A DNA stretch of 64,000 nt from Lachnospiraceae bacterium (GCA_045628965.1 JAZQQI010000006.1:104271-168270), one strand, 5' to 3'; positions 2,461-57,902 are shown, counted from the stretch's first letter. Made by a program: numbers and translations. The notes: generated by a model not told the origin, from the sequence alone.

Positions 2461-4194
2461 ATGAAATTAACAAAACGTGAATGGATTAAAAATATAGCGA
2501 TTGTATTTCTTGTGATAATGCTTATTCTCACATTTTTTTCAAATACAATTATGAACCGCTCGCTCCCTGAGGTAAGTTCACAAAGCCTTACAAACGGAAC
2601 CATCGTAACACAGGTTCGCGGCGAGGGCGTTGTTGAAGCAGTGGATCCTTACAGCGTCATAATAGATGAGACGAGAAAAATCAAAAGCGTAGCGAAAAAA
2701 GTTGATGACCGTGTTGAAGTAGGAGATGTGCTTTATTACCTTGAGGGTGAGACGAGTGAGGAACTTACGACGGCGAAAAACAGTCTGAAGGATGCTCAAA
2801 CGGAATATGATTTGTATCTTATGGATAATAATATATCAAAATCCGAAGCTGAACAGATTCAGGCCGGAGTAACTACGACAACAGGTGATATTCTTCAAAA
2901 ACTTGAGGCAAAAGATAAAGAGATTACTGATGCTCAAAAGGTTTCGGATGATACACAAAAAAAGATTGATGAATTGGTTAAGCAAAAGGATCTTAATCAA
3001 TATAATACAGTTGATGCTAAGGCGGAACTTGATGCTCTCAATAAAGCAAAGAGTGAAAGCGAAGCGGCAGATGCGGCTTTGGCAGGATATGACAAAGCCA
3101 GAGCGGAGTATAATGCCAAGGCGGTTGAATTAAATGAAAAAAATGCAGAGTATGTATGGGAGAAAAACAGATTGGACAGTACCGATCCCGATCCTTCGGT
3201 AACGGATCCCGATTATTATGCAGAGATTAAAGAGGCGTATGAAACCGTAGACAGAGATAAGTATTTGCTTGAACAAAAGGTTGCCGAACTTGCAGGCAAA
3301 CTTCCGTCCGATGAACAGTATAACGAGGCAAAAGCGAATGCAGATGCAAAAAAATCGGCAATGGAAACTGCACAGAAGAATTATGACAATAAGCTTGCTT
3401 CAATTGACAATAACGGAGATTCCATAAGCAAACAGCTTATTGAATTAAATTATTCGAAAAAGGAAAATGATGATAAAGTCAAGAAGTTGCAGGAAGAAAG
3501 AGATAAATATTACAATAACGAGAAAGCTAAAATTGAAATAGAGAAAAAATATCAGAATATCCTTCAAATAGAAAAGAAAATCAAAGACCTCGAAGCCAAA
3601 GCTATCGGAGGTGAAGTAACATCTCCGGTTGCAGGTACAATTACATCGCTTTCGTATACCGCAGGCGAAAAGGTAGAGGCAGGCTCGACAGTTGCGGTAG
3701 TACAGATAGACGGCAAAGGATATAAGCTTTCTTTTCCTGTAACCGAGAAACAGGCCAAGTCGGTAAATGTCGGAGATGAGGTTAGCGTAGTCAACAACTG
3801 GTTTTATTATGATATTACGGCCAATCTTGTAGCAATTAAGCCTGACAAGAGCAGCTCAAAAAATGGCAAACTTCTCGAATTTACAATTTCGGGAGAATCG
3901 ATTCAGCCCGGTCAGTATTTGACGTTGTCTGTAGGACAGAAGAGTTCGAATTATGATTTAATTGTTCCTCTCAGTGCGCTCAGAGAAGACAATAACGGTA
4001 ATTTTGTACTGATAGTGGAAACAAAGTCGACACCGTTCGGTTCCAGATACGTTGCCAAAAGAGTTGACGTGGAAGTTCTCGAAAAAGATGACAACAACGC
4101 TGCCGTAAAAGCAGAACTTTTCGGTTACGAGTATGTAATCACATCGTCGTCAAAACCTCTTGAAAACGGAGATCAGGTCAAAATCGCGGAGTAA
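2461..4194 (+). CDS. Membrane-fusion/periplasmic-adaptor protein (HlyD/RND-MFP family) with a long coiled coil
   Basis: N-terminal TM anchor; lipoyl-like halves (VKKVDDRVEVGDVL; VTSPVAGTITSLSYTAGEKVEAG) flank ~300 aa of helical sequence; C-terminal VPLSALREDNNG beta domain. GGAGG RBS before ATG 2461. Confidence 0.85.
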   Translation: MKLTKREWIKNIAIVFLVIMLILTFFSNTIMNRSLPEVSSQSLTNGTIVTQVRGEGVVEAVDPYSVIIDETRKIKSVAKKVDDRVEVGDVLYYLEGETSEELTTAKNSLKDAQTEYDLYLMDNNISKSEAEQIQAGVTTTTGDILQKLEAKDKEITDAQKVSDDTQKKIDELVKQKDLNQYNTVDAKAELDALNKAKSESEAADAALAGYDKARAEYNAKAVELNEKNAEYVWEKNRLDSTDPDPSVTDPDYYAEIKEAYETVDRDKYLLEQKVAELAGKLPSDEQYNEAKANADAKKSAMETAQKNYDNKLASIDNNGDSISKQLIELNYSKKENDDKVKKLQEERDKYYNNEKAKIEIEKKYQNILQIEKKIKDLEAKAIGGEVTSPVAGTITSLSYTAGEKVEAGSTVAVVQIDGKGYKLSFPVTEKQAKSVNVGDEVSVVNNWFYYDITANLVAIKPDKSSSKNGKLLEFTISGESIQPGQYLTLSVGQKSSNYDLIVPLSALREDNNGNFVLIVETKSTPFGSRYVAKRVDVEVLEKDDNNAAVKAELFGYEYVITSSSKPLENGDQVKIAE

Positions 4195-5228: not shown

Positions 5229-6347
5229 ATGATGAAAAAATCGATAACACCTAAATTTATTGCGTTGTTCGCAGTGACAACTGTGCTACTGACATCGACC
5301 ACCGGCTGCAGCCTGGCAGATATTATAACTGAATATTTAATCGGAGATGTTGAAGAAATCGAAGAAGTAGCAGAAGCAGAAGCAGAAGATGAAGAGGAAG
5401 AAATAAGAAGAGAAGCAAGAATACTTATTCCGTACAGTCATGGGCAATATCATCCCTCAGGCGAAAATGCCGCAAAACCCGAAGATGCGAACAGTTATGG
5501 CGAACTTTCGGAAGAGGAAACGGCAGCCGAAAAGTATGCCGATCTTAAAGTCGGTGACGAAATTGTATTCGGAGAATATGGAGCAGGACCTATCGAATGG
5601 ATGGTTCTTGATAAAGATAATGACGGTAACTACCTTCTTTTCTCAAAGTATGCGGTGGAAGTAATGCCGTATGATTATGAAGATTCTGAAAATGACCAAT
5701 GGGAGTTTTCGTATTTACGTGAATGGATGAACAATGATTTTTATAATCAGGCTTTTACGGAAGAGGAAAGAAGCTATATTGATACTTCACATTTGACGAA
5801 TAATGATAATTTCTTCGAAAACGGTGACAAGCCAAAGTCGACTCCCGGAGCGGATACTTACGACAAAATATTTGCTTTTTCATATACGGAATTGATGACA
5901 TATTTTTCATATTCGAGGTATTATACAATGGAAGAGTCAGTTTCTCAAATAGGCGACATTGTATATACCGTGATTGATCATGGATATTCGAGGGATGCAC
6001 TTTGTCCGGCTACCGAATATGTCTGTGAAAAAGATGCATATTACTGGTGGAACAGTGAAAATACAAATCTTGAAAAATTCGGTATGACCGAAGAAACGTA
6101 CTATAAGCCTTTTGTGGAATATTGGCTCAGAACCGGAGGTTGTAAAGGTCAAGTCATGATAGTAATGTCCAAAGGGGAGATTGGACCGACGGGATATTCG
6201 GTGGATTCCGAAGGTGAATGTGTACGCCCTGCCATGTGGGTTAATTTCAGTGGAGGAAGAGACATCGAGCCTCAGTTTGTCGGAAATGACCACACAATCA
6301 GTTTTCAGGTGGACGAAAAACCCTTTGATATACCTGAGAAAGAATAA
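5229..6347 (+). CDS. Lipoprotein with DUF6273-type domain
   Basis: Lipobox-like TTGC; GDEIVFGEY..PIEWMVLDK, WEFSYLREWMNNDFYNQAFT, YWLRT and VRPAMW motifs. Confidence 0.7.
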   Translation: MMKKSITPKFIALFAVTTVLLTSTTGCSLADIITEYLIGDVEEIEEVAEAEAEDEEEEIRREARILIPYSHGQYHPSGENAAKPEDANSYGELSEEETAAEKYADLKVGDEIVFGEYGAGPIEWMVLDKDNDGNYLLFSKYAVEVMPYDYEDSENDQWEFSYLREWMNNDFYNQAFTEEERSYIDTSHLTNNDNFFENGDKPKSTPGADTYDKIFAFSYTELMTYFSYSRYYTMEESVSQIGDIVYTVIDHGYSRDALCPATEYVCEKDAYYWWNSENTNLEKFGMTEETYYKPFVEYWLRTGGCKGQVMIVMSKGEIGPTGYSVDSEGECVRPAMWVNFSGGRDIEPQFVGNDHTISFQVDEKPFDIPEKE

Positions 6348-8295: not shown

Positions 8296-8648
8296 AAAAT
8301 TCTACAAAAGCAATCACATTGATTTTATTATTGGTAGTGGCACTCGGCCTTGCATTTATCCCTTCAAATAAGGCATATGCCGCAGGAGAATCGGGAATTG
8401 AAGCAGAGACAAACGACAATGACATTATGGTGGCTAAAGCACTCGGTGCAGCCGCTTGTGTAGGTTTGGTTGCCGCAGCGGGTGCTGTAGGTATGGCACT
8501 TGCAATTTCTAAGGCGGCAGAAGGTGTTTCACGTCAGCCCGAAGCGGCAGGAAAGATTCAGACGCTTTTACTTCTAGGACTTATCTTTATCGAGACTGCA
8601 ATTATTTACGGCTTGATTGTAGCTATCCTTGTAATTTTTGTACTGTAG
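8292..8648 (+). CDS. atpE: F1Fo ATP synthase subunit c with an N-terminal signal-peptide-like extension
   Basis: RQPE loop and IETAIIY carboxylate helix; ~45 extra N-terminal residues. Confidence 0.92.
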   Translation: MKNSTKAITLILLLVVALGLAFIPSNKAYAAGESGIEAETNDNDIMVAKALGAAACVGLVAAAGAVGMALAISKAAEGVSRQPEAAGKIQTLLLLGLIFIETAIIYGLIVAILVIFVL

Positions 8649-8675: not shown

Positions 8676-9158
8676 ATGAATTTACCGCTTAATATTGATA
8701 TACAGCAGATTCTTCTTCATCTCTTAAACTTCACAATCCTTTTCTGTGTTCTTTATTTCGTACTTTACGTACCAATTAAGAATTTCATGAACAAAAGGAC
8801 GGAGTACTATAAGAAGCTTGATGACGATGCCAATGACAAATTAAAAGAATCGGAAGAGATTAAGGCTGAATACGAGAAAAAACTTGCAAGCGCCGAAAGT
8901 GAAATTGCCGAAATCAAGGCAAATGCCAATAAAGAGAATGCTCTTGAACGCGAAAAAGTAATCGCAAAGGCAAACGATGAGGCCAAGGACATTGTTGAGA
9001 AGGCCAAAGAAAAGGCAAACGACGAGCATAAGCGAATTGTTGCCGATGCTCAGAAGGAAATTGCGGACATCGTAGATGAAGCAACACGTAAAATCGTTCT
9101 CGATTCGGATGTCGATACATACGATCAGTTCTTGAATGCTGTTGAAAGGAATCAGTAA
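8676..9158 (+). CDS. atpF: F1Fo ATP synthase subunit b
   Basis: N-terminal TM (LLNFTILFCVLYFVLYVPIKNFMNKR) plus a charged coiled coil. Confidence 0.9.
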   Translation: MNLPLNIDIQQILLHLLNFTILFCVLYFVLYVPIKNFMNKRTEYYKKLDDDANDKLKESEEIKAEYEKKLASAESEIAEIKANANKENALEREKVIAKANDEAKDIVEKAKEKANDEHKRIVADAQKEIADIVDEATRKIVLDSDVDTYDQFLNAVERNQ

Positions 9159-9159
9159 A

Positions 9160-10896
9160 ATGACTAACGAGCTTAAGGCTTATTTATATTCGAAGGTAAA
9201 ACCGACTGATTCGCAGGAGACAAAAATCAACGGATTTCTCGCAAAGAAATACGGTGAAGGCTTAACGCTTACATGGGTCTGTGATGCGAACGTCGAAGAC
9301 GGCTTCAGACTCGAAGTCGGTAAGGAAGTATACGATTGGACTAAGGAAGGTCGTCTTTTCCAGTTCAAGGAAATGCTTCAGAATGTAAAGGGTCGCAAGG
9401 GAAATGACAACATTATCCCTTTGATTAAGGAAAACTTAAAAGACTGGACGCCCAAAGGTGTTCCCGTTGAATACGGAAAGGTTACGGGAATCGGTGACGG
9501 CATTGCCACCATTGAAGGCCTTGACAGTGCAACATACGGTGAAATCCTTATTTTCGAGGACGGAACAAGAGGTATGGTACTTGACCTTCGTGAAGACGAA
9601 ATCGGATGTATCGTTTTTGACGACACAGATGAAATTTCCGAAGGCAGCAAGGTAAAGAGAACCGGAAGAAGTGCGGGTATTCCTGTTTCAAACGACTTCC
9701 TCGGAAGAGTAATCAATCCTTTGGGAGTTACAATCGACGGACTCGGAGAGGTTGAGAGCGAAGAATACAGAGCAATCGAAAGTCCGGCCCCCGGAATTAT
9801 CGAAAGACAGCCTGTCAATAAGCCCATGGAAACAGGTATCCTTTGCATTGATTCAATGTTTCCCATAGGAAGAGGACAGCGTGAACTCATAATCGGTGAC
9901 AGACAGACCGGAAAAACAGCCATTGCAATCGATACAATCGTTAACCAGAAGGGTAAGGATGTAATCTGTATCTATGTTGCAATCGGACAGAAAGCCAGCC
10001 TTATTTCACAACTTGTAACTAATCTTAAAAAACATGGCGCAATGGATTACACGGTAATCGTTACGGCTTCCGCATCGGATGCTGCGCCCATTCAATATAT
10101 CGCACCGTATTCGGGATGCGCTTTGGCTGAATATTTCATGTATCAGGGCAAAGATGTACTTATTGTCTATGATGATTTGTCAAAGCATGCCATAGCTTAC
10201 AGATCTTTGAGCTTGCTTCTCGACCGTTCGCCCGGACGTGAGGCATATCCGGGTGACGTATTCTATCTTCACTCAAGACTTCTTGAGCGTGCGGCACATC
10301 TTTCCGATGAACTCGGCGGCGGATCCATTACGGCTCTTCCCGTTGTAGAGACCCAGGCGGGTGACGTTTCGGCATATATTCCGACCAATATCATTTCGAT
10401 TACAGACGGTCAGATTTTCCTTGAAAGCAATCTTTTCTTCGAAGGTCAGAGACCTGCGGTAAATGTCGGTCTTTCTGTATCCCGTGTAGGTGGTGACGCC
10501 CAGACGAAGGCAGTAAAAAAAGCCACAGGCTCTTTGAGATTGGACCTCGCTCAGTACAGAGAAATGGAAGTCTTCAATCAGTTTTCGTCAGACCTTGACG
10601 ATGCAACACAGAAGCAGCTTGTTTACGGACAGGGACTTATGTATGTTTTGAGACAGCCTCAGTACAAGCCCTATTCACAGGCAGAACAGGTTATTCTCCT
10701 TGTAATTTCCCTTAATCATTTCTTCCAGGATGTTCCTTACAAGAAGATTAATGAGGAAATCAAGAAAGTACTCGATTATTTTAAGACTCAAAATCCTGAA
10801 ATTATAGCTAACATCGAAGCTACGGGCGTTATGACTCCCGAAGACAAAGAAAAGATTATTGAGGTTTCCAAACAGTACAAAAACAGTAACAAATAA
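9160..10896 (+). CDS. atpA: F1 subunit alpha with an N-terminal delta(C-domain)-like fusion
   Basis: GDRQTGKT Walker A, PGREAYPGDVFYLHSRLLER; ~90-aa extension containing DGFRLEVGKEVYDWT. AGGA RBS precedes ATG 9160. Confidence 0.95.
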   Translation: MTNELKAYLYSKVKPTDSQETKINGFLAKKYGEGLTLTWVCDANVEDGFRLEVGKEVYDWTKEGRLFQFKEMLQNVKGRKGNDNIIPLIKENLKDWTPKGVPVEYGKVTGIGDGIATIEGLDSATYGEILIFEDGTRGMVLDLREDEIGCIVFDDTDEISEGSKVKRTGRSAGIPVSNDFLGRVINPLGVTIDGLGEVESEEYRAIESPAPGIIERQPVNKPMETGILCIDSMFPIGRGQRELIIGDRQTGKTAIAIDTIVNQKGKDVICIYVAIGQKASLISQLVTNLKKHGAMDYTVIVTASASDAAPIQYIAPYSGCALAEYFMYQGKDVLIVYDDLSKHAIAYRSLSLLLDRSPGREAYPGDVFYLHSRLLERAAHLSDELGGGSITALPVVETQAGDVSAYIPTNIISITDGQIFLESNLFFEGQRPAVNVGLSVSRVGGDAQTKAVKKATGSLRLDLAQYREMEVFNQFSSDLDDATQKQLVYGQGLMYVLRQPQYKPYSQAEQVILLVISLNHFFQDVPYKKINEEIKKVLDYFKTQNPEIIANIEATGVMTPEDKEKIIEVSKQYKNSNK

Positions 10897-13813: not shown

Positions 13814-13861
13814 ATATTCAAGTATTACTTGAATATGAACTTCAACTTCAAACTGCTGTAA
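13814..13861 (+). promoter_or_regulatory. Palindromic operator, copy 1 (ATATTCAAGTA-T-TACTTGAATAT) within a duplicated leader
   Basis: Perfect 11-1-11 inverted repeat at 13814-13836; 13816-13861 matches 15901-15946 at 40/46 nt. Confidence 0.8.
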
Positions 13862-13911
13862 CTATGGTGCTTCATAGAATATTATTGAAACAACGAAAGG
13901 AGAACAAACAA

Positions 13912-14517
13912 ATGGCAAATTTGAATACATGGTATCCGACAATCGAAGTTGAATCTGCAAAGGGAATAAGAGAAGTATCGTTAAATACGAGGCATTTGAT
14001 GAACAGATGCATTTTCCTTACGGGAGAAATTGATGCGGAGACAGCAGGAAATTTCCTCTCGGAATTGCTCTTCTTGGAAAATGAGTCCGAAGAACCGGTA
14101 ACAATATATATTAACAGCCCCGGCGGCGAAGTTGATGCAGGCCTCTTGATATACGATGCCATACAGGGGAGCAGACTTGAAATCAACACTGTATGCACAG
14201 GAAGGGCAGCGAGCATGGCGGCGTTAATATTCGCTTCGGGACGAAGAGGACGAAGATACATAATGAAACACAGTAAGGTAATGATACACGAACCGCTTAT
14301 TGCGAACGGATTCGGCGGCTCGGCATCTTCGATAAAGAACATAGCCGACAGCATATTGGAAACAAGAGAGGTGGTAAACGGAATACTTGCTGAACTTACC
14401 GGCAGAACAATCGAAGAAATAAATGAAGCGACGGTTTACGACAATCTGATGAATGCCGACGAAGCAATAGAATTCGGAATGTGCGATAAGGTAACGGATA
14501 CAATAAAGATTAAATGA
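13912..14517 (+). CDS. clpP: ClpP-family serine protease subunit (atypical, accessory copy)
   Basis: IYINSPGG, AASMAA (Ser), VMIHEP (His), YDNLMNADEA (Asp). GAAAGGAG RBS before ATG 13912. Confidence 0.9.
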   Translation: MANLNTWYPTIEVESAKGIREVSLNTRHLMNRCIFLTGEIDAETAGNFLSELLFLENESEEPVTIYINSPGGEVDAGLLIYDAIQGSRLEINTVCTGRAASMAALIFASGRRGRRYIMKHSKVMIHEPLIANGFGGSASSIKNIADSILETREVVNGILAELTGRTIEEINEATVYDNLMNADEAIEFGMCDKVTDTIKIK

Positions 14518-14530
14518 AGGGGGGATAAAA

Positions 14531-15805
14531 ATGGAAAAGAATACGATGATTTTGGGACAGGATGTTTCTTTCAGCCTCGATTGCAGGCAAACGAGACTTA
14601 ACAATAATGTTTTGGTTGTGGGAACATCGGGCGCGGGAAAAACGAGAAGCATAGTAACACCGAATCTTCTACAGGCGAGCGGAAGTTACGTAATTTCCGA
14701 CCCGAAAGGTACTCTTTATAAAAAATACAAAGCCTATCTTGAAGGCAAAGGATACACGGTCAAAAAGCTGGATTTTACAGATCCGAAAAATTCTTCTCAT
14801 TATAACTTCTTTGAATATATAAAATCCACTCAGGATATCATGAAGACTGCTCATATACTGACATACAGCAGCGAGATGAGCGGCACAAACGAAATGTTTT
14901 GGCAGGAATCCACTCAACTTCTTTTGCAGGCGGTAATGGCACTTTTGATAGAGCAGGATAATAAAAAATTACAAAATCTTCGGTATATGATGGATTTAAT
15001 CTCCAGATGCCAAATAAATGAGAATGACAGTTCGTCTGCGACACAGTTGGATTTATTGATGAAAGCTATGAAAAATAAAAATACAGACAGCTACGCGGCC
15101 AAAACTTACGAAAAATTCCGAATTGCGGCGGGCAGAACGTTAAAATCGATTCTTATATCGGCTTTTGCAACTCTTGGAAATTATGATACGCCGGAAATAA
15201 ATGCGATGACGGAATATGACGATATAGATATTCCTTCGCTGGGAAAACAAAAGACGGCAATCTTTGTAATAGTAAGCGATACGGAACGATCGATGGACGG
15301 TCTTGTCAACATATTTTACACGCAGACGATGAATGAACTTTGCAGATATGCGGATAAAGAATGCGAAGACGGCTGCCTTCCGATACCGGTGAGGTTTATA
15401 ATGGATGATTTCGCGACAAACTGCAAAATAGAAGAATTCCCGAGAATGATATCATCCATAAGGTCGCGAGGAATATCGACAATGCTTATGATTCAGGCTG
15501 AATCGCAACTTGCAAAGTGCTACGGATATGATGGCAAAACCATAATCGGAAACTGTGATACATACGTATATATGGGCGGCAACGACATTGAGACGGCGGC
15601 CTCTGTGGCGGAAAGATGCGATGTGCCGATGAAGAAAATCTTATACATGCCGGTAGGGACTGTTTGGATATTCAGGCGCGGACAAAATCCGATACAAACT
15701 TTGAACTTCGATATAGATACTTACCTTGCCGAAAAAGGTCTGAACGAAAATAAAGTAACAGAGATTGTTTGTGAAAACAGTATTTTGGAAGAGGAGCCGA
15801 GATAA
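14531..15805 (+). CDS. VirD4/TraG-like coupling-protein-family ATPase lacking the N-terminal membrane anchor
   Basis: NNVLVVGTSGAGKT, VISDPKG, PVRFIMDDF, ISSIRSRGIS, IQAESQL and IIGNCDTYVYMG; no hydrophobic N-terminal helices. Confidence 0.85.
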   Translation: MEKNTMILGQDVSFSLDCRQTRLNNNVLVVGTSGAGKTRSIVTPNLLQASGSYVISDPKGTLYKKYKAYLEGKGYTVKKLDFTDPKNSSHYNFFEYIKSTQDIMKTAHILTYSSEMSGTNEMFWQESTQLLLQAVMALLIEQDNKKLQNLRYMMDLISRCQINENDSSSATQLDLLMKAMKNKNTDSYAAKTYEKFRIAAGRTLKSILISAFATLGNYDTPEINAMTEYDDIDIPSLGKQKTAIFVIVSDTERSMDGLVNIFYTQTMNELCRYADKECEDGCLPIPVRFIMDDFATNCKIEEFPRMISSIRSRGISTMLMIQAESQLAKCYGYDGKTIIGNCDTYVYMGGNDIETAASVAERCDVPMKKILYMPVGTVWIFRRGQNPIQTLNFDIDTYLAEKGLNENKVTEIVCENSILEEEPR

Positions 15806-15900
15806 TAAAAATTGACGCAAATCACGGTGAAGTGATAAACTGTTTTTGGATAAATGACAGAAGTCAAAACAGTTGAATGTAACGTATGTATTTATCTGCA

Positions 15901-15946
15901 ATTCAAGTAATACTTGAATATAAACTTCAACCTATGACTGCTGTAA
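15901..15946 (+). promoter_or_regulatory. Palindromic operator, copy 2 (ATTCAAGTA-A-TACTTGAAT) within a duplicated leader
   Basis: Perfect 9-1-9 inverted repeat at 15901-15919; starts 96 nt before ATG 15997, the same offset as copy 1. Confidence 0.8.
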
Positions 15947-15996
15947 TCTATACGGCAAGGTCGATATACTTGAGTTGTAGAAAGGAAGTGATACGA

Positions 15997-16827
15997 ATGA
16001 GCATAGGAACAAAGATAGCAGAAAGAAGAAAAGAATTGAAAATGAGCCAGCAGGATCTGGCCGAAAAAGTCGGAGTTTCTTTCCAGGCGGTAAGCTTGTG
16101 GGAGAGAGACGAGTGCCTTCCTGAGACGGAAAGGTTACTGGAGATAGCCAAAGTGTTAAGCACTAAGGTTTCATGGATTCTGGAAGAAGAAGGTGCAGAG
16201 CCGAATCGATGGGAATTAAAAGATGCGATGTTCTCGATAGAAAATATGGAGAAGAAGGTTCGCGAGTATGCCAGAGCAAAGGGGATGAGCGAATCATTAA
16301 AGGCCTTGAAAATCGCAAAGACAAAGCATGAAGGCCAAGTCAGAAGCGGAAAAGACAAGGTTCCGTACATAATTCACCCTCTGATGCTCGCCTGCCACGC
16401 AATCGCACTGAAGGTTGACAATGATAACCTGATTGCGGTATGCCTGCTTCACGATGTCGTCGAAGACTGCGATGTAACGCTCGACGAACTCGATGTAAAC
16501 GATGAGATAAAAGAAGCGGTCGGACTTCTGACCTTCAGGGTAATCGAAGGAAAAACCAAAGAAGAATCAAAGGCGGTTTACTACGATAAAATCAAGAAAA
16601 ACAAAACGGCCTGCATGGTCAAAGTGCTCGACCGGTGCAACAATATCTCCTCGATGGCAACAAGCTTCTCAAAAGCCAAAATCGCATCCTACATAGATGA
16701 AACCGAGAAGTACGTAATGCCGCTTCTGGATGTAATCAAACATGAATACGATGACTACTACGAAGCAGCGTTCCTTGTGAAATACCAAATGAGGAGTATA
16801 CTCGAATCACTGAAAAGACTTGTGTAA
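15997..16827 (+). CDS. XRE-family HTH fused to a RelA/SpoT-type HD hydrolase (small alarmone hydrolase/Mesh1-like)
   Basis: IAERRKELKMSQQDLAEKVGVSFQAVSLWE (XRE HTH); HEGQVRSG, PYIIHP, LLHDVVED and KVLDRCNN (hydrolase motifs). RBS favours ATG 15997. Confidence 0.9.
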   Translation: MSIGTKIAERRKELKMSQQDLAEKVGVSFQAVSLWERDECLPETERLLEIAKVLSTKVSWILEEEGAEPNRWELKDAMFSIENMEKKVREYARAKGMSESLKALKIAKTKHEGQVRSGKDKVPYIIHPLMLACHAIALKVDNDNLIAVCLLHDVVEDCDVTLDELDVNDEIKEAVGLLTFRVIEGKTKEESKAVYYDKIKKNKTACMVKVLDRCNNISSMATSFSKAKIASYIDETEKYVMPLLDVIKHEYDDYYEAAFLVKYQMRSILESLKRLV

Positions 16828-16848: not shown

Positions 16849-16884
16849 AAGCAACTCAAACGATGAAGTTTGAGTTGCTTTTTT
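16849..16884. terminator. Terminator between the convergent HD-hydrolase and alarmone-synthetase genes
   Basis: AAGCAACTCAAAC-GATGAA-GTTTGAGTTGCTT, with A/T runs on the flanks. Confidence 0.8.
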
Positions 16885-17662
16885 ACCCTTCAAGAGTTCT
16901 GTTCATGTTTTCCATTTTTGCTTCTGCTTTATAAATAAGCATGCTGCATTCTTTAAGCTCCTTGTCGAAATTTGAGGTATTCTCAGAATATAATGATTTG
17001 TATTTTATGTCATGTTCGAGACTTGCCCAAAGGTCCATAGCAAGTGTTCGAATCTGAAGTTCGACGGGGACATACTGCTTTTTGTTCATGAAATAAATGG
17101 GAACGCGGATTGTCATGTGAAGACTTCTGTACCCGTTTTTCTTCGGCTCTTCTATATAGTCTTTAATTCGCATTACCTGCAAATCGTCTTGGGCAAGAAT
17201 TCGGTCACGTATGAGATAAACATCCTTTATATAAGGACAGACAACTCTTATTCCGGCAATGTCGTAGATGTTATTGCATGCGGAATTAAGAGTGAGCTCG
17301 AGATTCTTTTTTTGAAGCTTTCCCAAAATGCTTTTGGCTGATTTGAGCCTTGTATCGATGTGATGAATGGGACTTCGAAGCTTTCTGAATTCAAATTCGT
17401 CCTGAATGATTTCAAGACGGGATTTTGCTTCGCTCATTGCCGAGTTATACATAAGAAGAATCGGGTCGATTGTCTGTGAGAAGATTTCGTCCATATCGAC
17501 CAAATCTTCCATGTTTCCGTGTGTTCCTGAAGCGGGGACGATACTGTAAATTTCAATTGTATCATCGGACGTTAACTCGATGGCCTCTTCGGCTTCATCG
17601 GATATTATTTCTATTTGTTTTGTTTCTTTGTAAACTGTTTTTTCTTTCTTTTTAAAATTCAA
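16883..17662 (-). CDS. Small alarmone synthetase (RelP/RelQ-like GTP pyrophosphokinase)
   Basis: RLKSAKSILGK, DIAGIRVV, KDYIEEPKKNGYRSLH and ELQIRTLAMDLWASLEHDIKYK. TTG at 17662 chosen from GAGG spacing; the start is uncertain. Confidence 0.92.
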   Translation of the reverse strand: MNFKKKEKTVYKETKQIEIISDEAEEAIELTSDDTIEIYSIVPASGTHGNMEDLVDMDEIFSQTIDPILLMYNSAMSEAKSRLEIIQDEFEFRKLRSPIHHIDTRLKSAKSILGKLQKKNLELTLNSACNNIYDIAGIRVVCPYIKDVYLIRDRILAQDDLQVMRIKDYIEEPKKNGYRSLHMTIRVPIYFMNKKQYVPVELQIRTLAMDLWASLEHDIKYKSLYSENTSNFDKELKECSMLIYKAEAKMENMNRTLEG

Positions 17663-17693
17663 AATAACTAACCTCACAAATCAAGATATCGAT

Positions 17694-19789: not shown

Positions 19790-21404
19790 CAGACTGCAGA
19801 CAAACCCCTTTTCAAAACGAGATGTTTTTGAAGAGGGGTTCATTTTTTGAGATTTTATGCGATTTTGATGACTATAAATCGCGAAAAGTCAAATAAGTGC
19901 GATATATGGGTGCCTATTAGCCCCATTCTTTTCTTAATTCTTGCCATTTTTTTAAGATTCATGCACGCAAATGTGAGCCCGACTTTCATTTCCATTCGGG
20001 CTTTTCCTATCATATTTGTGTATCTGAATCCATGTGCTTCTTTAGCAGTTCCAAACAACCTTTCAATTGTTTCTTTTCGCTTGGAATAAAGTTCCTTCAT
20101 TCCCTCTGTATAGCGAATATCTTCTGCCATTTCCATGTATTCTTCCCAGACATGTCTTGTGACTACTTTGACATGATTCTTTGATTCCGTACATTGATTA
20201 AGATAAGGACATTTCTCACAGATTTCCGCGCAGCTTTTATACTCTTTATAACCTTCCTTGTTAGTTGTTGTATATTTTAGGATTTCATCATTGGGGCATA
20301 TATAGCAATCATAGTATTCATCATAAACGTATTCATATTTTTTAAAGAACCCTTCTTTAGTCATTGGTCTTTTATACGGGAAGAGAGGTGTCTTACCATC
20401 ATCTATGATTGTTTTGGCTATCGCCGGTGTTTTATATCCTGCATCTGCAATGATTGTTTCACAATCAAGATTTCGTATCTTTTCATAGATGGCAGGAAAT
20501 GTTCTGCTGTCATGTTCATTACCTGGATGAACTGTATATCCTAAAATCCATCCGTATTTATCGCAGGCGGTTTCTACTGCGTATGCGAATACCTGTTTAT
20601 GTTCTCCTTTATGAAACCATCCGCTTTCGGGATCTGTTGTACTTACCTTTATTTCCTTTCCGCCTGATGCTCCGCCTTTGTTATTATCATCGTCATCGTC
20701 ATCATCTTTATCTTTAAGAGGTTTCTTGCCATGAAGTTCACGGTCTTCGTTTATCTCTTTTTTTAACAACTCTTCATAAAAAAGGGCTTCTTCTTTGGCG
20801 AATTGTTTCTCCATCTTTTTATTGTTTGCACATGCTTTCACATGAGTGGCATCAATAAATATCTCTTTGGGATCAACAAGATTTAACTTATAGCATTCCT
20901 CAAGAATACGTGCAAAAATCTGTTCAAACAGATCCGTATCTTTAAATCTTCTTGTATAGTTTTTTCCAAAGGTGGTGAAGTGGGGAACTCTGTCGGTAAG
21001 ACCAATACCGAGGAACCAGCGAAAAGCGACATTTACTTCGATTTCTTTCATTGTCTGTCGCATAGAGCGTATACCATAAAGGTATTGAATAAAAGGTATT
21101 TTAATAAGCGTTACCGGATCCATACTTGGACGGCCGTTATTCGGACAATACTTCTCTTCTACAAGATCGTATATGAAAGTCCAGTCAATCGCTTCATCTA
21201 TAAGACGAAGCAGATGATCTTGAGGAACCAATTCGTCTGTACAAAACATCTGAAGCTGACTTCTGTTCTTGTCAGTATTCTGAGTCATCATAAGCAATAC
21301 CCTCCATGACTCTATTATACCACAAAAGTGCCTATTTTACGCGGTTTTTAAGCAATTTCAAAAGAAAAATCCACGGAAAATCCGTGGACTTTGTCTTCAC
21401 TCTG
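19790..21404 (-). mobile_element. IS1182-family insertion sequence, apparently intact (1615 bp)
   Basis: Terminal IRs CAGACTGCAGACAAA / CAGAGTGAAGACAAA (13/15); flanked by a 25-bp direct repeat; single transposase ORF. Confidence 0.9.
19855..21291 (-). CDS. IS1182-family DDE transposase
   Basis: DELVPQDHLLRLID, GRPSMDP, FRWFLG, IFIDATH, ADAGY and RKETIERLFG motifs. Confidence 0.92.
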   Translation of the reverse strand: MMTQNTDKNRSQLQMFCTDELVPQDHLLRLIDEAIDWTFIYDLVEEKYCPNNGRPSMDPVTLIKIPFIQYLYGIRSMRQTMKEIEVNVAFRWFLGIGLTDRVPHFTTFGKNYTRRFKDTDLFEQIFARILEECYKLNLVDPKEIFIDATHVKACANNKKMEKQFAKEEALFYEELLKKEINEDRELHGKKPLKDKDDDDDDDNNKGGASGGKEIKVSTTDPESGWFHKGEHKQVFAYAVETACDKYGWILGYTVHPGNEHDSRTFPAIYEKIRNLDCETIIADAGYKTPAIAKTIIDDGKTPLFPYKRPMTKEGFFKKYEYVYDEYYDCYICPNDEILKYTTTNKEGYKEYKSCAEICEKCPYLNQCTESKNHVKVVTRHVWEEYMEMAEDIRYTEGMKELYSKRKETIERLFGTAKEAHGFRYTNMIGKARMEMKVGLTFACMNLKKMARIKKRMGLIGTHISHLFDFSRFIVIKIA

Positions 21405-23409: not shown

Positions 23410-25419
23410 ATGTATTATTGTATGCGATGCGGTGACAAAATTGATAAGGACGAATTTGTCTGCGATAAGTGCGGATTGAAATTTACCGTGAACTGCGATG
23501 ACGGCTCGATGGTTTACGTCAATATGTCTCCCGATCCTGAGGCTCAAAAGAAAAAGAATGCCGAAGAAAACAAAAAGAAGAAAAAGAAAAAAAGAAAAAA
23601 AGGTTGGTTGATAGCTCTTTTATCGACTCTCGGAGTTTTTATGCTTCTGTTTACCGGCACGCTTGTCCTTACAGCGGGCGGAGTTATAGGAATATTGTTT
23701 TTCTGGCTCGGGTTCGAGGATGAAAGTATCGAGGTATACGACCCGACGGCAGATCCTTTGACGTCGCAGTCGACAATGGTTAAAGATCCGATAGTCTTCC
23801 AAAACGGCGGGCAGATGGTTCAGTCGCAGTTCTTTTCCGATGTCATAAGAGACCAGTTTGTAACGCTTAAAGGTGACGGAACGGATACTGTTACCGTTAT
23901 GGTTTATTTGAATGGGTCCGATCTTGAAACAGAGAACGGTTTTGCATCAAGTGACGTAAAAGAGATACTAAGCGCAACTTTATCAGATAACGTCAATGTC
24001 ATTATTCAGACCGGCGGTACGAAGAAGTGGAGAACAAGTGCAATCTCGAGTACGCATTCGCAAAGATTTCTTGTTCAAAACGGCAAACTTGTGCTTATAG
24101 ACGATACTTTGGGACAGCTTGATATTACCGATGAACAAACGCTTGAAGATTTTATTGTATATTGCAATACCAATTATCCGGCAGACAGAAATATGCTTGT
24201 TTTGTGGGATCATGGCGGCGGAGTTGTGTACGGCTTCGGAAATGATGAAAATAATCCCGATTATTCGGCAACTTTGACTATCGGAGAAATTCGTGAAGCC
24301 ATAAGAAATTCAGGCGTGAAGTTTGAAATGATCGGTTTTGATGCATGCCTTATGGGCGGACTTGAAACAGCCTGTGCACTCAGTGACGTTGCGGATTATC
24401 TTATTGCTTCAGAAGATTTTGAATCTGCGGAAGGATGGGAGTATCAGAACTGGCTTTCGCTTCTTGGATACAATTCATCGACTCCTATGACCGATATAGG
24501 CAAAATCATTATTGATGACTTTATTAAAGAAAGTATGATAGGATACAGCGAAGGATGTCTTGCTCTCGTCGATTTGAGGTACACGAGACTTCTCTTCAAT
24601 GCCTGGACGGAATTTGCATATGCGAACGAAAACGACATTCTGCAATACGACTATAATATGGCCATGCAAAGAAGCGCAAGAGCGTTGCCTTGGATGTTTG
24701 AGGATGAAAAGAAGGATATTTGGGATTGGTGGTTCTCCGATTCGGGCTCAGATGACGGTATTACGATGGAATCGTATTATCATGCCGTAGATTTGATGGC
24801 TATTGCAAGCCGAATTGATACGGAAGAAGCAGAAGCTCTTTGTTCGGCAATTCCCTGCGCAATACTTTATTGCTCGACGACGCAAGGGGATTCGTATATG
24901 ACCGGACTTTCCGTAACGTTGCCGTATTCCGACGAGGATTTTTACTTCAGATTAAAGGATGCGTTTTTGGAATGCGGATTTGATGAGGGCTATTTGAGCT
25001 ACCTTTATGATTTCGTTAATGCCGATCTGGTTGGATCGTATGATTGGAACGAGTCGGGCTATAACGGTTGGGATGATTATTCCTACGATGATTATGATTA
25101 TAACTGGGAAGATTATTCCTGGGATGATTATACAGACAGCGATTATTCGTGGGATACATACGAATATGACGATGAGTGGTATGATTACAATTGGGAATTC
25201 GGAGATTATTATTACGATTCCGAGACGGATGAGTGGTATTACTGCGATGAACGCGGCAATTGGATTTCCGAAGACGAATGGGATGATTACTATTGCGACG
25301 ATTACTATTACGACGATTACTATTACGACGATTATTATTACGATGATGATTACTACTACTATGATGACGAGTACTACTACGATGATGAGTATTACTGCGA
25401 AGACGGCTACTGTTATTGA
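23410..25419 (+). CDS. Clostripain-family (C11) cysteine peptidase with an N-terminal zinc ribbon, a TM anchor and an Asp/Tyr/Trp-rich tail
   Basis: CMRC...CDKC; TM segment; YLNGSDLE, WDHGGG (His), GFDACLM (Cys); C-terminal DDYYY repeats. Confidence 0.85.
   Translation: MYYCMRCGDKIDKDEFVCDKCGLKFTVNCDDGSMVYVNMSPDPEAQKKKNAEENKKKKKKKRKKGWLIALLSTLGVFMLLFTGTLVLTAGGVIGILFFWLGFEDESIEVYDPTADPLTSQSTMVKDPIVFQNGGQMVQSQFFSDVIRDQFVTLKGDGTDTVTVMVYLNGSDLETENGFASSDVKEILSATLSDNVNVIIQTGGTKKWRTSAISSTHSQRFLVQNGKLVLIDDTLGQLDITDEQTLEDFIVYCNTNYPADRNMLVLWDHGGGVVYGFGNDENNPDYSATLTIGEIREAIRNSGVKFEMIGFDACLMGGLETACALSDVADYLIASEDFESAEGWEYQNWLSLLGYNSSTPMTDIGKIIIDDFIKESMIGYSEGCLALVDLRYTRLLFNAWTEFAYANENDILQYDYNMAMQRSARALPWMFEDEKKDIWDWWFSDSGSDDGITMESYYHAVDLMAIASRIDTEEAEALCSAIPCAILYCSTTQGDSYMTGLSVTLPYSDEDFYFRLKDAFLECGFDEGYLSYLYDFVNADLVGSYDWNESGYNGWDDYSYDDYDYNWEDYSWDDYTDSDYSWDTYEYDDEWYDYNWEFGDYYYDSETDEWYYCDERGNWISEDEWDDYYCDDYYYDDYYYDDYYYDDDYYYYDDEYYYDDEYYCEDGYCY
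25282..25400 (+). repeat. Coding tandem repeat (~15-bp GACGATTACTATTAC units; DDYYY)
   Basis: Four near-identical 15-bp units from 25282, then degenerate GAY/TAY triplets. Confidence 0.85.
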
Positions 25420-39309: not shown

Positions 39310-40752
39310 ATGGAAAAATTTGATTTGATTCATATGGGAAAAGCGCAATGCGCAGTCGACCTTGGTGACGGCAGCGAAAGAGGCGAGTACGTCAACCAGG
39401 ATTACATTTTGAATACTCTCGGAAGACCCATGCGCGCCATTTCATTAATGACCAGTTATTATCCTTTGGACAAGGGATTTCCGAAGAGAGCCCATGATGC
39501 TTTTTCGGATACGGATATTTCATTCCAATGGGATTACCCTTATGACGATTATGAGACGTACAAAGGTGGGCTTGTCGGACAGCTTGACAAGGAGCCTTTC
39601 AATTGGATGAGGGATGTAAGAAGACACGGCCAGGATGTTTGTCTTACAATTACAATGGATCCGCACCTTCCTGATGAGCATATTGTTGCGATAGCTAAGG
39701 ATTTGTCGACTTTTGGACGTGTTCTTTTAAGAATCAATCATGAAGCTACAGGCAACTGGTTTTCTTTTAACAAAAGAGCTTCGTACGAAGAAGTTGCGGA
39801 ATTTTTCGCTCATGTGTGCGAGATTTTTCATAAAGAAGCCGAGAATGTCAAAGTTATTCTTTGCATTGACGGATACAAGAGCCTTACTGAAGAAAAGATG
39901 GATAAGGAAGAAGAGTTTACCCGTGCGATTAAGAACGCGGACATCTTTTCGGTGGACAGATATATGGCACTTCACTGGGGATGGCCGTATGATGTTGCCG
40001 ACAGCGACACAAAGAATTACAGCAGAACCAAGGTTGAAGAAATCTATGAACTCGGAAAGAGAAGTTACAAGAGATTTTGCGAGATAGCCGAAGAAAAACG
40101 TCCCATGGTTCTTTCGGAAGTTAATGCCGACGGCGACGTTACGGGACCTTACGATCAGGCAGAGATGCTTATTTCGTTTTGCAACATGTTAAAGGAAGAC
40201 GAAGAAAAGTGGCTTGACGCATTTACGCTTTATCAGTTCAGAGACAGAGGAAGACTCGGACTTGAGCTTGAGGATGCGAACAATAAGGAAGTGGGAATCA
40301 AACTTCCTCTGATGGATGCGTTTAAACAGGTCATTAACGACGAATATTTTATGCCGACGATTGAATCCAATTCGGAAATATCTCTTCCGGCAACATTGAG
40401 ATGGGGCGGAAGCGAGGACGCCGACGGCATAGGAATGAATCTTAATTTCGAAAAAGATCCGGTATTTTGCGAGGCGTACTTTGAGGACGAACTCTTGGAA
40501 GCAAATCTTTTGATGGCAATTAACGGAAAGTGGTTTTACAAAGCCCCGGGCGTAAAGTGCGTTGATTTGATGCCTGCCTTTTTCGACAAGAAAATCGGAG
40601 CGGATGCCAAGCTTAATCTTTTGATATTTGCACCGCCTGCCACGGGCGAAAATGTGCCGGAATCCGGTGATGACTGGAAGTTGAATTACAGATATACGTT
40701 AACGAAAATTCCCCGCATAAGAATCAGGTATGCGCCGATTCTTCCGAGATAG
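39310..40752 (+). CDS. GH26-like glycoside hydrolase (clan GH-A pattern)
   Basis: LRINHEATGNWF (acid/base Glu, like GH26 HEMNGxWF); DIFSVDRY; PMVLSEV (putative nucleophile). Confidence 0.6.
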   Translation: MEKFDLIHMGKAQCAVDLGDGSERGEYVNQDYILNTLGRPMRAISLMTSYYPLDKGFPKRAHDAFSDTDISFQWDYPYDDYETYKGGLVGQLDKEPFNWMRDVRRHGQDVCLTITMDPHLPDEHIVAIAKDLSTFGRVLLRINHEATGNWFSFNKRASYEEVAEFFAHVCEIFHKEAENVKVILCIDGYKSLTEEKMDKEEEFTRAIKNADIFSVDRYMALHWGWPYDVADSDTKNYSRTKVEEIYELGKRSYKRFCEIAEEKRPMVLSEVNADGDVTGPYDQAEMLISFCNMLKEDEEKWLDAFTLYQFRDRGRLGLELEDANNKEVGIKLPLMDAFKQVINDEYFMPTIESNSEISLPATLRWGGSEDADGIGMNLNFEKDPVFCEAYFEDELLEANLLMAINGKWFYKAPGVKCVDLMPAFFDKKIGADAKLNLLIFAPPATGENVPESGDDWKLNYRYTLTKIPRIRIRYAPILPR

Positions 40753-40920
40753 AAATTACAACATAAATAAGAAAAAGCAGATATTTGTTGTAAAATGTCA
40801 AAACACAAAGATAGAAATTACAACAAAAATATGAAAAAACAGATATCTGTTGTAAAATGCCAATATTCAGGTATCGAAATTACAACATAAACGTAGAAAA
40901 AGTAATATTTGTTGTAATTT
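40753..40920. repeat. Array A: 3 x 62-bp units, each TTACAACA-N22-TGTTGTAA
   Basis: Left arms at 40756, 40818, 40880; right arms at 40786, 40848, 40910. Confidence 0.9.
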
Positions 40921-41001
40921 GAAAAATATGACACACAAAAGTGATATAATTAGTGAAATTCACACGTATAAACAGCGCGGGATAAAGAAAAGAGGAGAAT
41001 C

Positions 41002-50300: not shown

Positions 50301-50599
50301 GTCTTTTGGTTGAAGAGGCCGAAGACGGCCAGGTTGCTCTTTACAAGGTGCTTGAAAAAGGAGCGGATTATTACGATGCGATTCTTATGGATATACAAAT
50401 GCCGGTTATGGACGGTTATGAAGCAACACGTGAAATCAGAAAGAGATTTCCGGATGAACATATCCCGATAATTGCGTTGTCCGCAAATGCTTTCAACGAG
50501 GACAAAATAAAAGCTGTCGAGGCGGGCATGGACGATCATCAGTCAAAACCGATTGTTATTTCGCAATTGTTTGAAACGCTTAAAAAGTATATTAAATAA
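47375..50599 (+). CDS. Soluble hybrid histidine kinase/response regulator with tandem PAS-like repeats
   Basis: H-box FLFNMSHDIRTPMNAI; N/G boxes; receiver VEDN, LMDIQMP and KP; no TM segment. Confidence 0.93.
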   Translation: MSQLNSKASIDDILQKAKIGIWVVEQKDGGTIKMYADSQMCELIGIDENSEPDKVYSFWYDHIHPDHYEEVNQMIAQASEGRPTEVVYPYYHPTKGMITVRCSAVNVTMDNGLLRFEGTHQEVTTFSHLRKENKKIDELIKLLASDYLGFYYVNLDDESGVIVNIDDNVVDTQQNLSKSSSLREAFGRYIATAVHPEDRDKMRKALETENIRQKLKNDKSFTEVFRRNLNGEFFYCDMKVTKYEPLHDMPHNVSIGFTLANSERQEEIKLRKKLEQNLQIIDVLASEFEAVFYVNLETDEMSNYSHKKDSGRVVDKCFSSGIKYSEAYKLFLESKVLPEDVAMMTQRGSFENIVKELKSKKTYTTIYRSEHGGYAEMKFVKVGNEDENPKAVALGFADRDSEIRQKKEEEKRLKRNIDIMEILASEYSSVYYVDLTTDDIDTYTMNEETESEFGQIFRSGIKYTQAYQMYVDTLVYEEDREMMLKAGSLYNILNELGNKKTFITQYRSVGNGEPHYCEMKFVKVGEDENPNAVALGFSDKDEVIRTEKKNKETIERDMAVISGLSDDFGCVVYVDYNTYEEIHYRYEPKFEQNIPGWTKLNNFQERIELLINTIMHPDDRASFKEATRHDVVLESIKKDKVYFVNFRTLIGDEVTYYQAKFVRDDYSDTHLIAGFHNVDEETKREMNALQKAETASKAKSTFLFNMSHDIRTPMNAIMGFTDMAIKNIDNKDRTMESLRKVKSSSEYLLSLINDILDMSRIEADKMDLEETPHDLFQCGQDVLPMLRDLAEQKELRFTSDFLNITDRYVYLDYLRMNQALINLVSNAVKYTKEGGRVWFNVKQTKKPENGYAEYEFSVKDTGIGMSQEFIKTAFDTFSREKNSTISKQQGTGLGLAITKRIIEKMNGTITIESEQGVGSLFTVTVPFRIVENPKEVEEAQSKMSVEEVKLEGKRVLIVEDNELNREISVDILSDAGLLVEEAEDGQVALYKVLEKGADYYDAILMDIQMPVMDGYEATREIRKRFPDEHIPIIALSANAFNEDKIKAVEAGMDDHQSKPIVISQLFETLKKYIK

Positions 50600-57733: not shown

Positions 57734-57902
57734 AATTTACAACAGAAATGAAAAAAATAACAGGATATGTTGTAATTTGGCTTGCGGTCGGAGAATAAAT
57801 TACAACAACAGTCGAAAATACGCGAGATATGTTGTAATTTGCGCCGGGTGTAGAGGGGATAATTACAGCAATAGGGCTGATTATTGCAAATATGTTGTAA
57901 TT
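57734..57902. repeat. Array B: 3 x 62-63-bp units, TTACA(A/G)CA-N22/23-TGTTGTAA (same family as array A)
   Basis: Left arms at 57737, 57800, 57863; right arms at 57768, 57830, 57893. Confidence 0.88.

Follow-up and report, generated by a model that had tools for sequence, protein, structure and literature searches.

The 64,000-nt stretch of DNA analysed here (hereafter the window) comes from a Lachnospiraceae bacterium (GCA_045628965.1 JAZQQI010000006.1:104271-168270) and contains two copies of a 46-bp block, one before a clpP-like gene and one before a gene, here called XRE-HD, whose product joins an XRE-type helix-turn-helix (HTH) to a hydrolase domain of the HD type. The F1Fo ATP synthase operon ends at 13684, upstream of the first block, and is followed on the plus strand by genes for a ClpP-like serine protease (13912-14517, 201 aa; Pfam CLP_protease, E = 4e-51), a soluble VirD4/TraG-like ATPase of the CD1115 family (VirD4L; 14531-15805, 424 aa; NCBIfam NF045973, 341 bits against a cut-off of 250) and the XRE-HD regulator (15997-16827, 276 aa). 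On the minus strand, 16883-17677 encodes a small alarmone synthetase of the RelP/YwaC type, extended by ~70 aa at its N-terminus; the gene is convergent with XRE-HD, and the two genes share a hairpin terminator (16849-16880, unstranded) made of a 13-bp stem and then a T-run on the minus strand. Genes for an EAL phosphodiesterase and a DDE transposase lie beyond the synthetase. Ordinary sigma-A promoters are expected in this host, because its AtpD shares 85-89% identity with proteins labelled as coming from Lachnospiraceae metagenome-assembled genomes (MAGs) and because the sequencing runs that contain the window DNA are gut and faecal metagenomes, some of them from horse. Closer strains, with 94-97% identity in AtpD, also exist.

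Read directly, the two blocks are ATTCAAGTATTACTTGAATATGAACTTCAACTTCAAACTGCTGTAA (13816-13861, plus strand, before the clpP-like gene) and ATTCAAGTAATACTTGAATATAAACTTCAACCTATGACTGCTGTAA (15901-15946, plus strand, before XRE-HD), identical at 40/46 nt, and both open with a perfect 9-N-9 palindrome, ATTCAAGTA-N-TACTTGAAT. This distal palindrome (unstranded) is ATTCAAGTA-T-TACTTGAAT at 13816-13834 in copy 1, centred on 13825, and ATTCAAGTA-A-TACTTGAAT at 15901-15919 in copy 2, centred on 15910; its half-sites, TCAAG and CTTGA, are spaced 10 bp apart, comparable to the TTAAG-N4-CTTAA of phage P22. The ATG codons at 13912 and 15997 each lie exactly 96 nt from the start of their block, and GAAAGGA begins at +79 in both copies (13895 and 15980; offsets are counted from the block start), where it belongs to the Shine-Dalgarno sequences of the clpP-like gene (GAAAGGAG, 13895-13902, plus strand, a direct sequence reading) and of XRE-HD (GAAAGGA, 15980-15986, plus strand). 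The 40/46 match, the palindrome, the 96-nt distance to each ATG and the GAAAGGA offset had been listed in the initial annotation and were confirmed on the sequence, as was its statement that the window holds no other full copy. A repeat finder grouped the two blocks as a family of two copies; when up to 3 mismatches are allowed, the palindrome occurs at 2 sites in the 64-kb window versus 0.04 expected from shuffles; and a 47-nt weight matrix built from orthologue instances of the block scored copy 1 at 52 bits and copy 2 at 55 bits, the next best match reaching 7 bits. The pattern of a genome-wide repeat or miniature inverted-repeat transposable element, with many dispersed copies away from gene starts, was not seen in the 64 kb, which carry two copies. 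The initial annotation had described the duplication as a leader of ~96 bp, but the similarity has a sharp upstream edge (14/60 identical in the 60 nt before the two blocks), and between +46 and +95 only 20/50 positions are identical, with the matches clustered at the -10 box and the Shine-Dalgarno sequence. Because similarity stops sharply at both block ends, the duplicated unit is ~46 bp and not a 96-nt leader.

A core promoter is predicted immediately downstream of the block. When ten non-redundant instances are aligned on the block, nine have a TAnnnT hexamer at +64 and the remaining one has it at +65. The background frequency in these regions is 0.044 per position, and the sequence surrounding the hexamer is not conserved; the ten hexamers are TATTAT, TATACT, TATACT, TATAAT, TAAACT, TATAAT, TATTCT, TACGAT, TACAAT and TATAAT. 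The -10 boxes of the window are TATTAT in copy 1 (13880-13885, plus strand) and TATACT in copy 2 (15965-15970, plus strand), with predicted start sites near 13892 and 15977, respectively. A conserved CTGTAA, within TGCTGTAA, lies 18 nt upstream of the -10 box (13856-13861 and 15941-15946, plus strand) and may serve as a weak -35. A start at about +76 would place the palindrome centre at about -67, upstream of the core promoter, and leave a 5' untranslated region (UTR) of ~20 nt, and the equal offsets of GAAAGGA and ATG in the two copies would be explained because a UTR of that length has room only for a ribosome-binding site. On this evidence the block appears to be the upstream half of a promoter cassette rather than part of a transcribed leader.

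An arrangement that would retain the leader places an auto-repressor operator over a TTGAAT -35 and follows it with a 96-nt transcribed leader, such that XRE-HD blocks RNA polymerase at both promoters. TTGAAT, which lies within the palindrome and had been read in the initial annotation as -35-like, matches the -35 consensus at 5/6 positions, XRE and P22-C2-type proteins are usually repressors, and in one distant orthologous locus (L004) the CTTGAAT half-site does act as the -35 of a canonical promoter. However, the hexamer 17 nt downstream of TTGAAT is nnTGCT in all 11 instances and no -10 box occurs 16-19 nt downstream in any of them, so that TTGAAT was rejected as a -35, whereas a positionally conserved -10 box lies 45 nt after it. 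Beyond +46, moreover, the copies share only the -10 and the Shine-Dalgarno sequence and no common RNA structure, and the auto-repressor arrangement is improbable. Placing the -10 immediately before the palindrome, so that the operator falls at +1 (L081, L111 and L114), was also rejected, as such a box is not positionally conserved and is missing from both window copies. Separately, a sigma-70-like TTGACG-18-TAAACT with an extended TG was observed at 15812-15841, immediately past the stop codon of virD4L, 60 nt ahead of cassette copy 2; the interval between virD4L and XRE-HD carries no terminator, and read-through or a second promoter running into the palindrome is possible.

The block also precedes XRE-HD genes elsewhere. 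XRE-HD homologues number more than 1000, in gut and rumen Bacillota, roughly 100 of them being orthologues with over 55% identity; orthologous loci were fetched from genomes and assemblies, and an alignment scan of a genome collection gave 5 full-length orthologues among many ordinary RelA/SpoT genes. A gap-free block of the form a.TCAAG-N5-CTTGAAT-N7-TCAA-N8-TGCTG(t/g) was found 96-128 nt before the ATG of XRE-HD orthologues that are 59-75% identical, in seven unrelated neighbourhoods: beside an ADP-ribosylglycohydrolase gene (L081/82), beside restriction-helicase and NUDIX genes (L083), beside WYL, HIRAN and NT5C genes (L084), in a conjugative element with MobL and Toprim (L111-113), in chromosomal loci (L105-110 and L120-121), and in L102 and L114/115. 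An eighth context (L119) carries a different perfect 9-N-9 palindrome, ATTCAAGCT-A-AGCTTGAAT, with indels downstream of it. In L084 (Logan SRR21151038), where XRE-HD is 64% identical, three cassettes were identified (3508-3554, 5896-5942 and 8537-8583), each ~105 nt before the first gene of its own operon, namely Sel1/HIRAN, XRE-HD and 93-aa/86-aa/NT5C/Sel1; the surrounding region resembles a mobile element, with WYL, an NS-type endonuclease and an AAA_23 ATPase. A 41-nt pattern gave five matches in the Joint Genome Institute (JGI) metagenome collection, of which one was a true copy, again before an XRE-HD gene, and the other four were chance matches in GC-rich coding sequence; the same pattern gave 0 matches in a viral contig collection, and a palindrome-only scan of viral contigs gave 8 chance matches, none near related genes. 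No full-length XRE-HD was found in the plasmid and phage record collections, and the viral collection held only 2 distant homologues. The initial annotation had suggested looking for the motif upstream of orthologues, and it is there that the block recurs, in unrelated neighbourhoods and not as a dispersed repeat within the window. These occurrences support the interpretation of the block as a shared cis-regulatory element.

The distribution of the palindrome points to the XRE-HD protein as its binder. The pattern TCAAG-N5-CTTGA has 11 matches in 125 kb of XRE-HD loci of the motif group and 3 in 30 kb of distant orthologues that keep the recognition helix V[ST]FQAVSxWER, versus 0 in 32 kb of orthologues with VSAQAVSKWEN (L002, L003 and L116), 0 in 43 kb of clpP-virD4L loci, 0 in 40 kb of HD-only loci and 1 in 788 kb of unrelated RelA/SpoT homologue (RSH) loci. 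Every orthologue whose helix 3 reads V[ST]FQAVSxWER has the palindrome, including L004 and L005, which are just 40% identical and in which it again lies ~100 nt before the first ATG of the operon; overall, both the window and 9 orthologous contexts have it ~100 nt ahead of the ATG, and its presence covaries with the recognition helix. The nearest solved relative of the HTH is the N-terminal domain of the P22 C2 repressor (E = 1e-9), and the HTH model matches the operator-bound chain 3jxb_C in Foldseek with a template modelling (TM) score of 0.91, a root-mean-square deviation (rmsd) of 0.7 Å and 41% identity. Operators of P22 follow the consensus ATTTAAGATATCTTAAAT, in which TTAAG half-sites are separated by one helical turn (PMC5175364), and the resulting ATTTAAG-N4-CTTAAAT resembles the ATTCAAG-N5-CTTGAAT found here. 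Since the block co-occurs with XRE-HD across unrelated contexts and tracks its recognition helix, and since the HTH is homologous to a repressor with a similar operator, XRE-HD very probably binds the palindrome. A promoter-operator cassette could be genuine and yet be bound by another factor, either a host regulator or an alternative sigma factor recognising TGCTGTAA, and the conservation of TGCTG(T)A beyond the need of a weak -35 would fit such a factor. This possibility is also of low probability, however, given that the palindrome accompanies the XRE-HD gene across unrelated genomes and contexts, is lost exactly where the recognition helix changes and resembles the operator of the closest structural homologue of the HTH.

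The 46-bp direct repeats precisely bracket the two-gene clpP-virD4L module (13816-15900), which is derived from a mobile element and has a DDE transposase gene 4 kb away, and they could be a recombination scar or an att-like site left by its insertion. However, the block is single-copy before XRE-HD orthologues and triple before three operons in L084, always lies ~100 nt from an ATG with a -10 at +64, has no recombinase adjacent, and showed neither a joined nor an excised form in four runs of metagenome or metatranscriptome sequencing (at low depth), which makes a scar without a regulatory role very improbable. Least probable is that a promoter upstream of the palindrome serves a long 5' UTR with an RNA element such as a hairpin, attenuator or riboswitch: the -10-like boxes found 3-8 nt upstream of the palindrome in several orthologues (TATAAT in L081 and L111, TATACT in L114), the TTGACG-18-TAAACT match at 15812-15841 and the complementary inner arm positions of three different perfect 9-N-9 versions (window, L084b and L119) would suit it, but those boxes are not positionally conserved while the +64 box is, Rfam gave no credible match, the fold z-scores are -0.3 (copy 1, no better than shuffled) and -3.0 with no structure shared beyond the palindrome, and a 9-bp stem cannot be closed by a 1-nt loop.

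Besides the distal palindrome, the promoter cassette may contain a second operator. When the distal palindrome is compared with shifted versions of the block, the best agreement lies at a 24-bp offset (8.8/18 identity versus 2.5-6.1 at other offsets), and it marks a site of consensus TTCAAn-N5-nTTGCT, centred at about -43 and overlapping the -35 region, whose TTCAA and TGCTG are invariant or almost so across block instances. In copy 1 this putative degenerate proximal operator reads TTCAAC...CTGCTGT (13841-13859, unstranded), and in the distant orthologue L117 a single good palindrome occupies the proximal position. The conservation and spacing suggest that the proximal site may act as an operator.

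The XRE-HD protein consists of a P22 C2-like HTH (residues 1-65), a linker and a SpoT/Mesh1-type HD hydrolase domain (~80-276). Pfam HTH_3 matched at 48.9 bits against a cut-off of 23, HD_4 at 26.3 bits, slightly below its cut-off of 27.2, and TIGR00691 gave a partial match (E = 6e-17), while phmmer comparisons of the HD domain with Rel, SpoT and Mesh1 hydrolase domains gave E = 4e-12 to 5e-7. The AlphaFold model has a predicted local distance difference test (pLDDT) score of 89.7, and its C-terminal domain matches, with target-normalised TM scores of 0.71-0.81 in Foldseek, the structures 6yvc, 5vxa, 7smg and 7p1y, the fold matches being the P. aeruginosa small alarmone hydrolase (SAH), Mesh1, the Bacteroides (p)ppApp hydrolase and RelH. 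The residues H111, R116, H127, H152, D153, E156, D157, D212, R213 and N216, which make up the metal and catalytic set of Mesh1/Rel, are invariant in 37 orthologues, and the pattern H..HD..ED..DRxxN is kept throughout. Because the domain has the SAH/Mesh1 fold and its metal and catalytic residues are invariant, it is probably an active alarmone hydrolase, and substrate binding may gate DNA binding. No literature on XRE-SAH fusions was found, including in searches for 'small alarmone hydrolase' together with 'XRE'.

The genes that the first cassette would control belong to a widely distributed pair. ClpP with a soluble VirD4-like ATPase of 412-424 aa was observed as a tightly conserved combination (65-71% identity, >100 clusters); across L085-L091 and L118 the ClpP proteins are 70-75% and the VirD4L proteins 68-71% identical, with VirD4L directly downstream of ClpP in every relative examined. 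An in-frame ATG at 13864, listed by an open reading frame (ORF) finder, was rejected as the clpP start because it lacks a ribosome-binding site and because alignments of orthologous ClpP proteins begin at the 13912 start. On plasmids, the canonical CD1115 proteins have 623 aa and are encoded in type IV secretion loci that lack ClpP, and this ClpP might be partnered with an ATPase of the FtsK/HerA type rather than an AAA+ ATPase; no literature on ClpP paired with a VirD4-like or CD1115 protein was found. Elsewhere the clpP-virD4L pair follows either a small XRE gene (96-100 aa) that has a long conserved leader of its own or a gene for a 152-157-aa membrane protein. The leader of the small XRE gene (~110-130 nt; L085 3940-4045, L090 4935-5045 and L091 1-70) has the form GCCTTGCATCCCC...GGATG(C/T)TGTAAT...ACCCGCATT, matched nothing in Rfam, and may be an undescribed leader or an operator array. 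In L089 (3100-3860) a separate SAH-like HD_4 gene directly follows a frameshifted small XRE gene; it is 30% identical to the XRE-HD hydrolase domain and is broken by a stop codon. An alarmone hydrolase seems to have joined the clpP-virD4L module independently there.

The link between the clpP-virD4L pair and XRE-HD is itself not conserved. In 9 other XRE-HD contexts there is no clpP, virD4L or synthetase gene, and 4 distinct clpP-virD4L contexts contain neither the cassette nor XRE-HD. The initial annotation had proposed that the XRE domain binds the operator and controls both its own gene and clpP-ATPase, with the three genes forming one circuit; the shared operator, XRE-HD as its very probable binder and a likely common circuit in this genome are upheld, but a three-gene circuit conserved as a system is not, with 0/9 and 0/4 contexts showing the association. 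On the available comparisons, the clpP link appears to be a rewiring specific to this genome or lineage. The two window cassettes are each other's nearest relatives (19/26 variable columns, versus ~10/26 for other pairs) with unrelated flanks, and this closest mutual similarity suggests that the cassette was duplicated within the lineage and grafted onto a captured, stripped-down module. L084, with its three cassettes, repeats this arrangement of a single regulator and cassette copies on adjacent cargo. Also observed was the DDE transposase gene (DUF772/DDE_Tnp_1_6; 19855-21297, minus strand), 3 kb past the island, which fits the region downstream of atpC as a landing site for mobile DNA. The adjoining synthetase best matches RelP/YwaC (6ewz, E = 2e-51; 1e-43), CapRel-type chains giving E = 6e-5; its gene has no cassette, and its adjacency to a hydrolase gene is suggestive but is not conserved in orthologous loci. 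A toxSAS/SAH toxin-antitoxin pair was rejected on the grounds that the synthetase is RelP-like and convergent, with a terminator between the genes, and that no small alarmone synthetase (SAS) lies beside XRE-HD at any other locus. A known anti-phage defence system was likewise rejected, as PADLOC gave weak or generic matches only (mad8, E = 2e-5, for the clpP-virD4L pair; the HTH part of RmrA; PDC-S33 for the synthetase).

Taken together, we consider it likely, with a probability of roughly 0.7, that XRE-HD has a portable sigma-A promoter cassette whose upstream, protein-binding half is the 46-bp block, and that this block has been duplicated before the captured clpP-virD4L pair. In the proposed layout, a strong palindrome, TCAAG-N5-CTTGA (here extended to 9-N-9), would stand at about -67 and a degenerate site at about -43 over a weak -35, followed by an 18-nt spacer, the -10 at +64 and a UTR of ~20 nt. 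A dimer of the P22-C2-like HTH would bind the distal palindrome, presumably with high affinity, and a second dimer would probably bind the proximal site cooperatively. By duplication of the block within the genome and its grafting before the clpP-virD4L pair, which elsewhere has its own small XRE regulator, the protease, the ATPase and the regulator would all have come to answer to one protein, for which the C-terminal (p)ppGpp/(p)ppApp-type hydrolase, apparently active, is the likely signal input.

Several observations weigh against this promoter-cassette interpretation. CTGTAA is a weak -35 assignment, with a 3/6 match to the consensus, and the start sites near 13892 and 15977 are predicted from the -10 box. 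The proximal site is poorly palindromic in both window copies, in which only TTCAA and TG match. The geometry varies among distant orthologues, the palindrome of L117 abutting the -35 region and L004 having a canonical TTGAAT-17-TATAAT promoter. Pieces of clpP and XRE-HD are present in RNA libraries, but the three or four short contigs recovered from two metatranscriptome runs are internal to the genes and include no 5' ends. In addition, the orthologue instances are related by descent, such that their counts are not fully independent, and the scan of the host genome for block copies covered 64 kb, with further copies possible elsewhere. Finally, a palindrome at -67 does not alone occlude RNA polymerase, and the direction of regulation is not readable from the sequence.

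For the promoter cassette, positive autoregulation and activation are given about even odds by analogy, and repression through occupancy of the -35 region is judged somewhat less probable. The leaning towards activation arises because the predicted layout, with a strong site at -67, a weak site at -43 and a weak -35, matches the placement of OR1 and OR2 with respect to PRM in the phages lambda and P22, where their cooperative occupancy activates PRM, the repressor's own promoter. A more far-reaching proposal is that XRE-HD represents a new class of mobile-element switch, in which a P22-C2-type HTH has exchanged the SOS self-cleaving domain for an active (p)ppGpp/(p)ppApp hydrolase, and in which the cassettes and their cargo would be switched by alarmone level (in the stringent response or under toxSAS/ppApp attack) and not by DNA damage. 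We regard this as rather unlikely; if true, the regulator would also destroy its own signal, and the machine of ClpP and a soluble VirD4-like ATPase would here be alarmone-inducible.

Palindromic auto-operators of XRE regulators are routine, and the wider interest of the locus lies elsewhere. No description was found of a phage-repressor HTH combined with an apparently active alarmone hydrolase. No direct action of (p)ppGpp on RNA polymerase is known in Firmicutes, and a DNA-binding protein with an alarmone-binding catalytic domain would offer a direct transcriptional read-out of alarmones in these bacteria. The cassette appears to be a compact, copyable unit of ~100 bp with two operators, a weak -35 and a -10, and its copying before different cargo operons in at least 2 genomes would be a clear case, in nature, of a regulon growing through promoter duplication. 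It also marks the conserved, unstudied pair of ClpP and a soluble VirD4-like ATPase as a regulated unit and offers an experimental route to its induction.

Other features of the window were noted in passing. At 40747-40932, three tandem 62-nt units each carry an inverted repeat, AAATTACAACA...TGTTGTAAT, and a fourth related copy lies 17 kb away (57797-57842); the units look like the operator array of another regulator. Two paralogous stretches resembling sensor kinase and response regulator genes (49433-50424 and 52203-53197, 2770 bp apart, 71-83% nucleotide identity) suggest a tandem gene duplication. A coding tandem repeat of 12-15-nt units rich in GAT and TAC codons (25058-25405) would encode an Asp/Tyr-rich low-complexity segment. 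In the atp operon (8676-10896), the 586-aa ORF for ATP synthase alpha begins with the C-terminal half of an OSCP/delta domain and is overlapped at its start by a 160-aa ORF, consistent with either a delta-alpha fusion or a frameshift in atpH.

Several known systems share parts of this architecture. In toxSAS-SAH pairs (FaRel/ATfaRel; PMC7229694), as here, a RelA/SpoT-type synthetase gene adjoins an HD hydrolase gene, and the HTH of XRE-HD could confer an antitoxin-style autoregulation; the synthetase here is, however, RelP/YwaC-like, convergent and not co-transcribed, lacks the cassette, and is absent from the 9 other XRE-HD contexts. The RNPP regulators (ComR, Rgg and PlcR) likewise join an XRE HTH to a C-terminal ligand-binding domain and activate promoters with a weak -35 from an inverted repeat just upstream, but their sensor is a TPR peptide-binding domain and not an HD hydrolase, and their whole-chain Foldseek matches to XRE-HD are weak (TM ~0.2). 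The controller (C) proteins of restriction-modification systems, such as C.PvuII, are small XRE-type HTH proteins with a distal high-affinity and a proximal low-affinity operator before their own gene, and their cargo is co-controlled from the same promoter; these operators are activating and repressing, according to PMC2647307. In contrast to XRE-HD, C proteins are single-domain and have no sensor, their operator sequences are different, and their cargo is co-transcribed and not driven by a duplicated cassette. Among small alarmone hydrolases (Mesh1, P. aeruginosa SAH, C. glutamicum RelH and the Bacteroides (p)ppApp hydrolase), which share the fold of the C-terminal 190 residues of XRE-HD (TM 0.71-0.81), the known members are stand-alone proteins, whereas the hydrolase of XRE-HD is fused to a sequence-specific DNA-binding domain.

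The closest parallels are with P22 C2 and lambda CI. The HTH of XRE-HD is 41% identical to the N-terminal domain of P22 C2 (rmsd 0.7 Å), and its proposed operator is palindromic with half-sites one helical turn apart, as in P22, with TCAAG in place of TTAAG and a central spacer of 5 bp instead of 4. The predicted layout would recall OR1 and OR2 of lambda and P22 in having, 24 bp apart, a strong distal site and a putative weak proximal one (about -67 and -43) before a regulator promoter with a weak -35, although the second site is weak in the window copies; in lambda, OR1 and OR2 occupy such positions relative to PRM. The C-terminus of XRE-HD is, in contrast to that of the phage repressors, a SpoT/Mesh1-type HD hydrolase (HD_4/SAH fold) and not a self-cleaving domain of the S24/LexA-like type, and no RecA/SOS input is therefore expected. 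No divergent lytic promoter, cro gene or third operator was seen here, the upstream genes (the atp operon and virD4L) being co-directional, and the locus is not in a prophage and has no phage genes nearby. In a further departure from lambda and P22, the cassette appears here to have been copied to drive neighbouring cargo operons.

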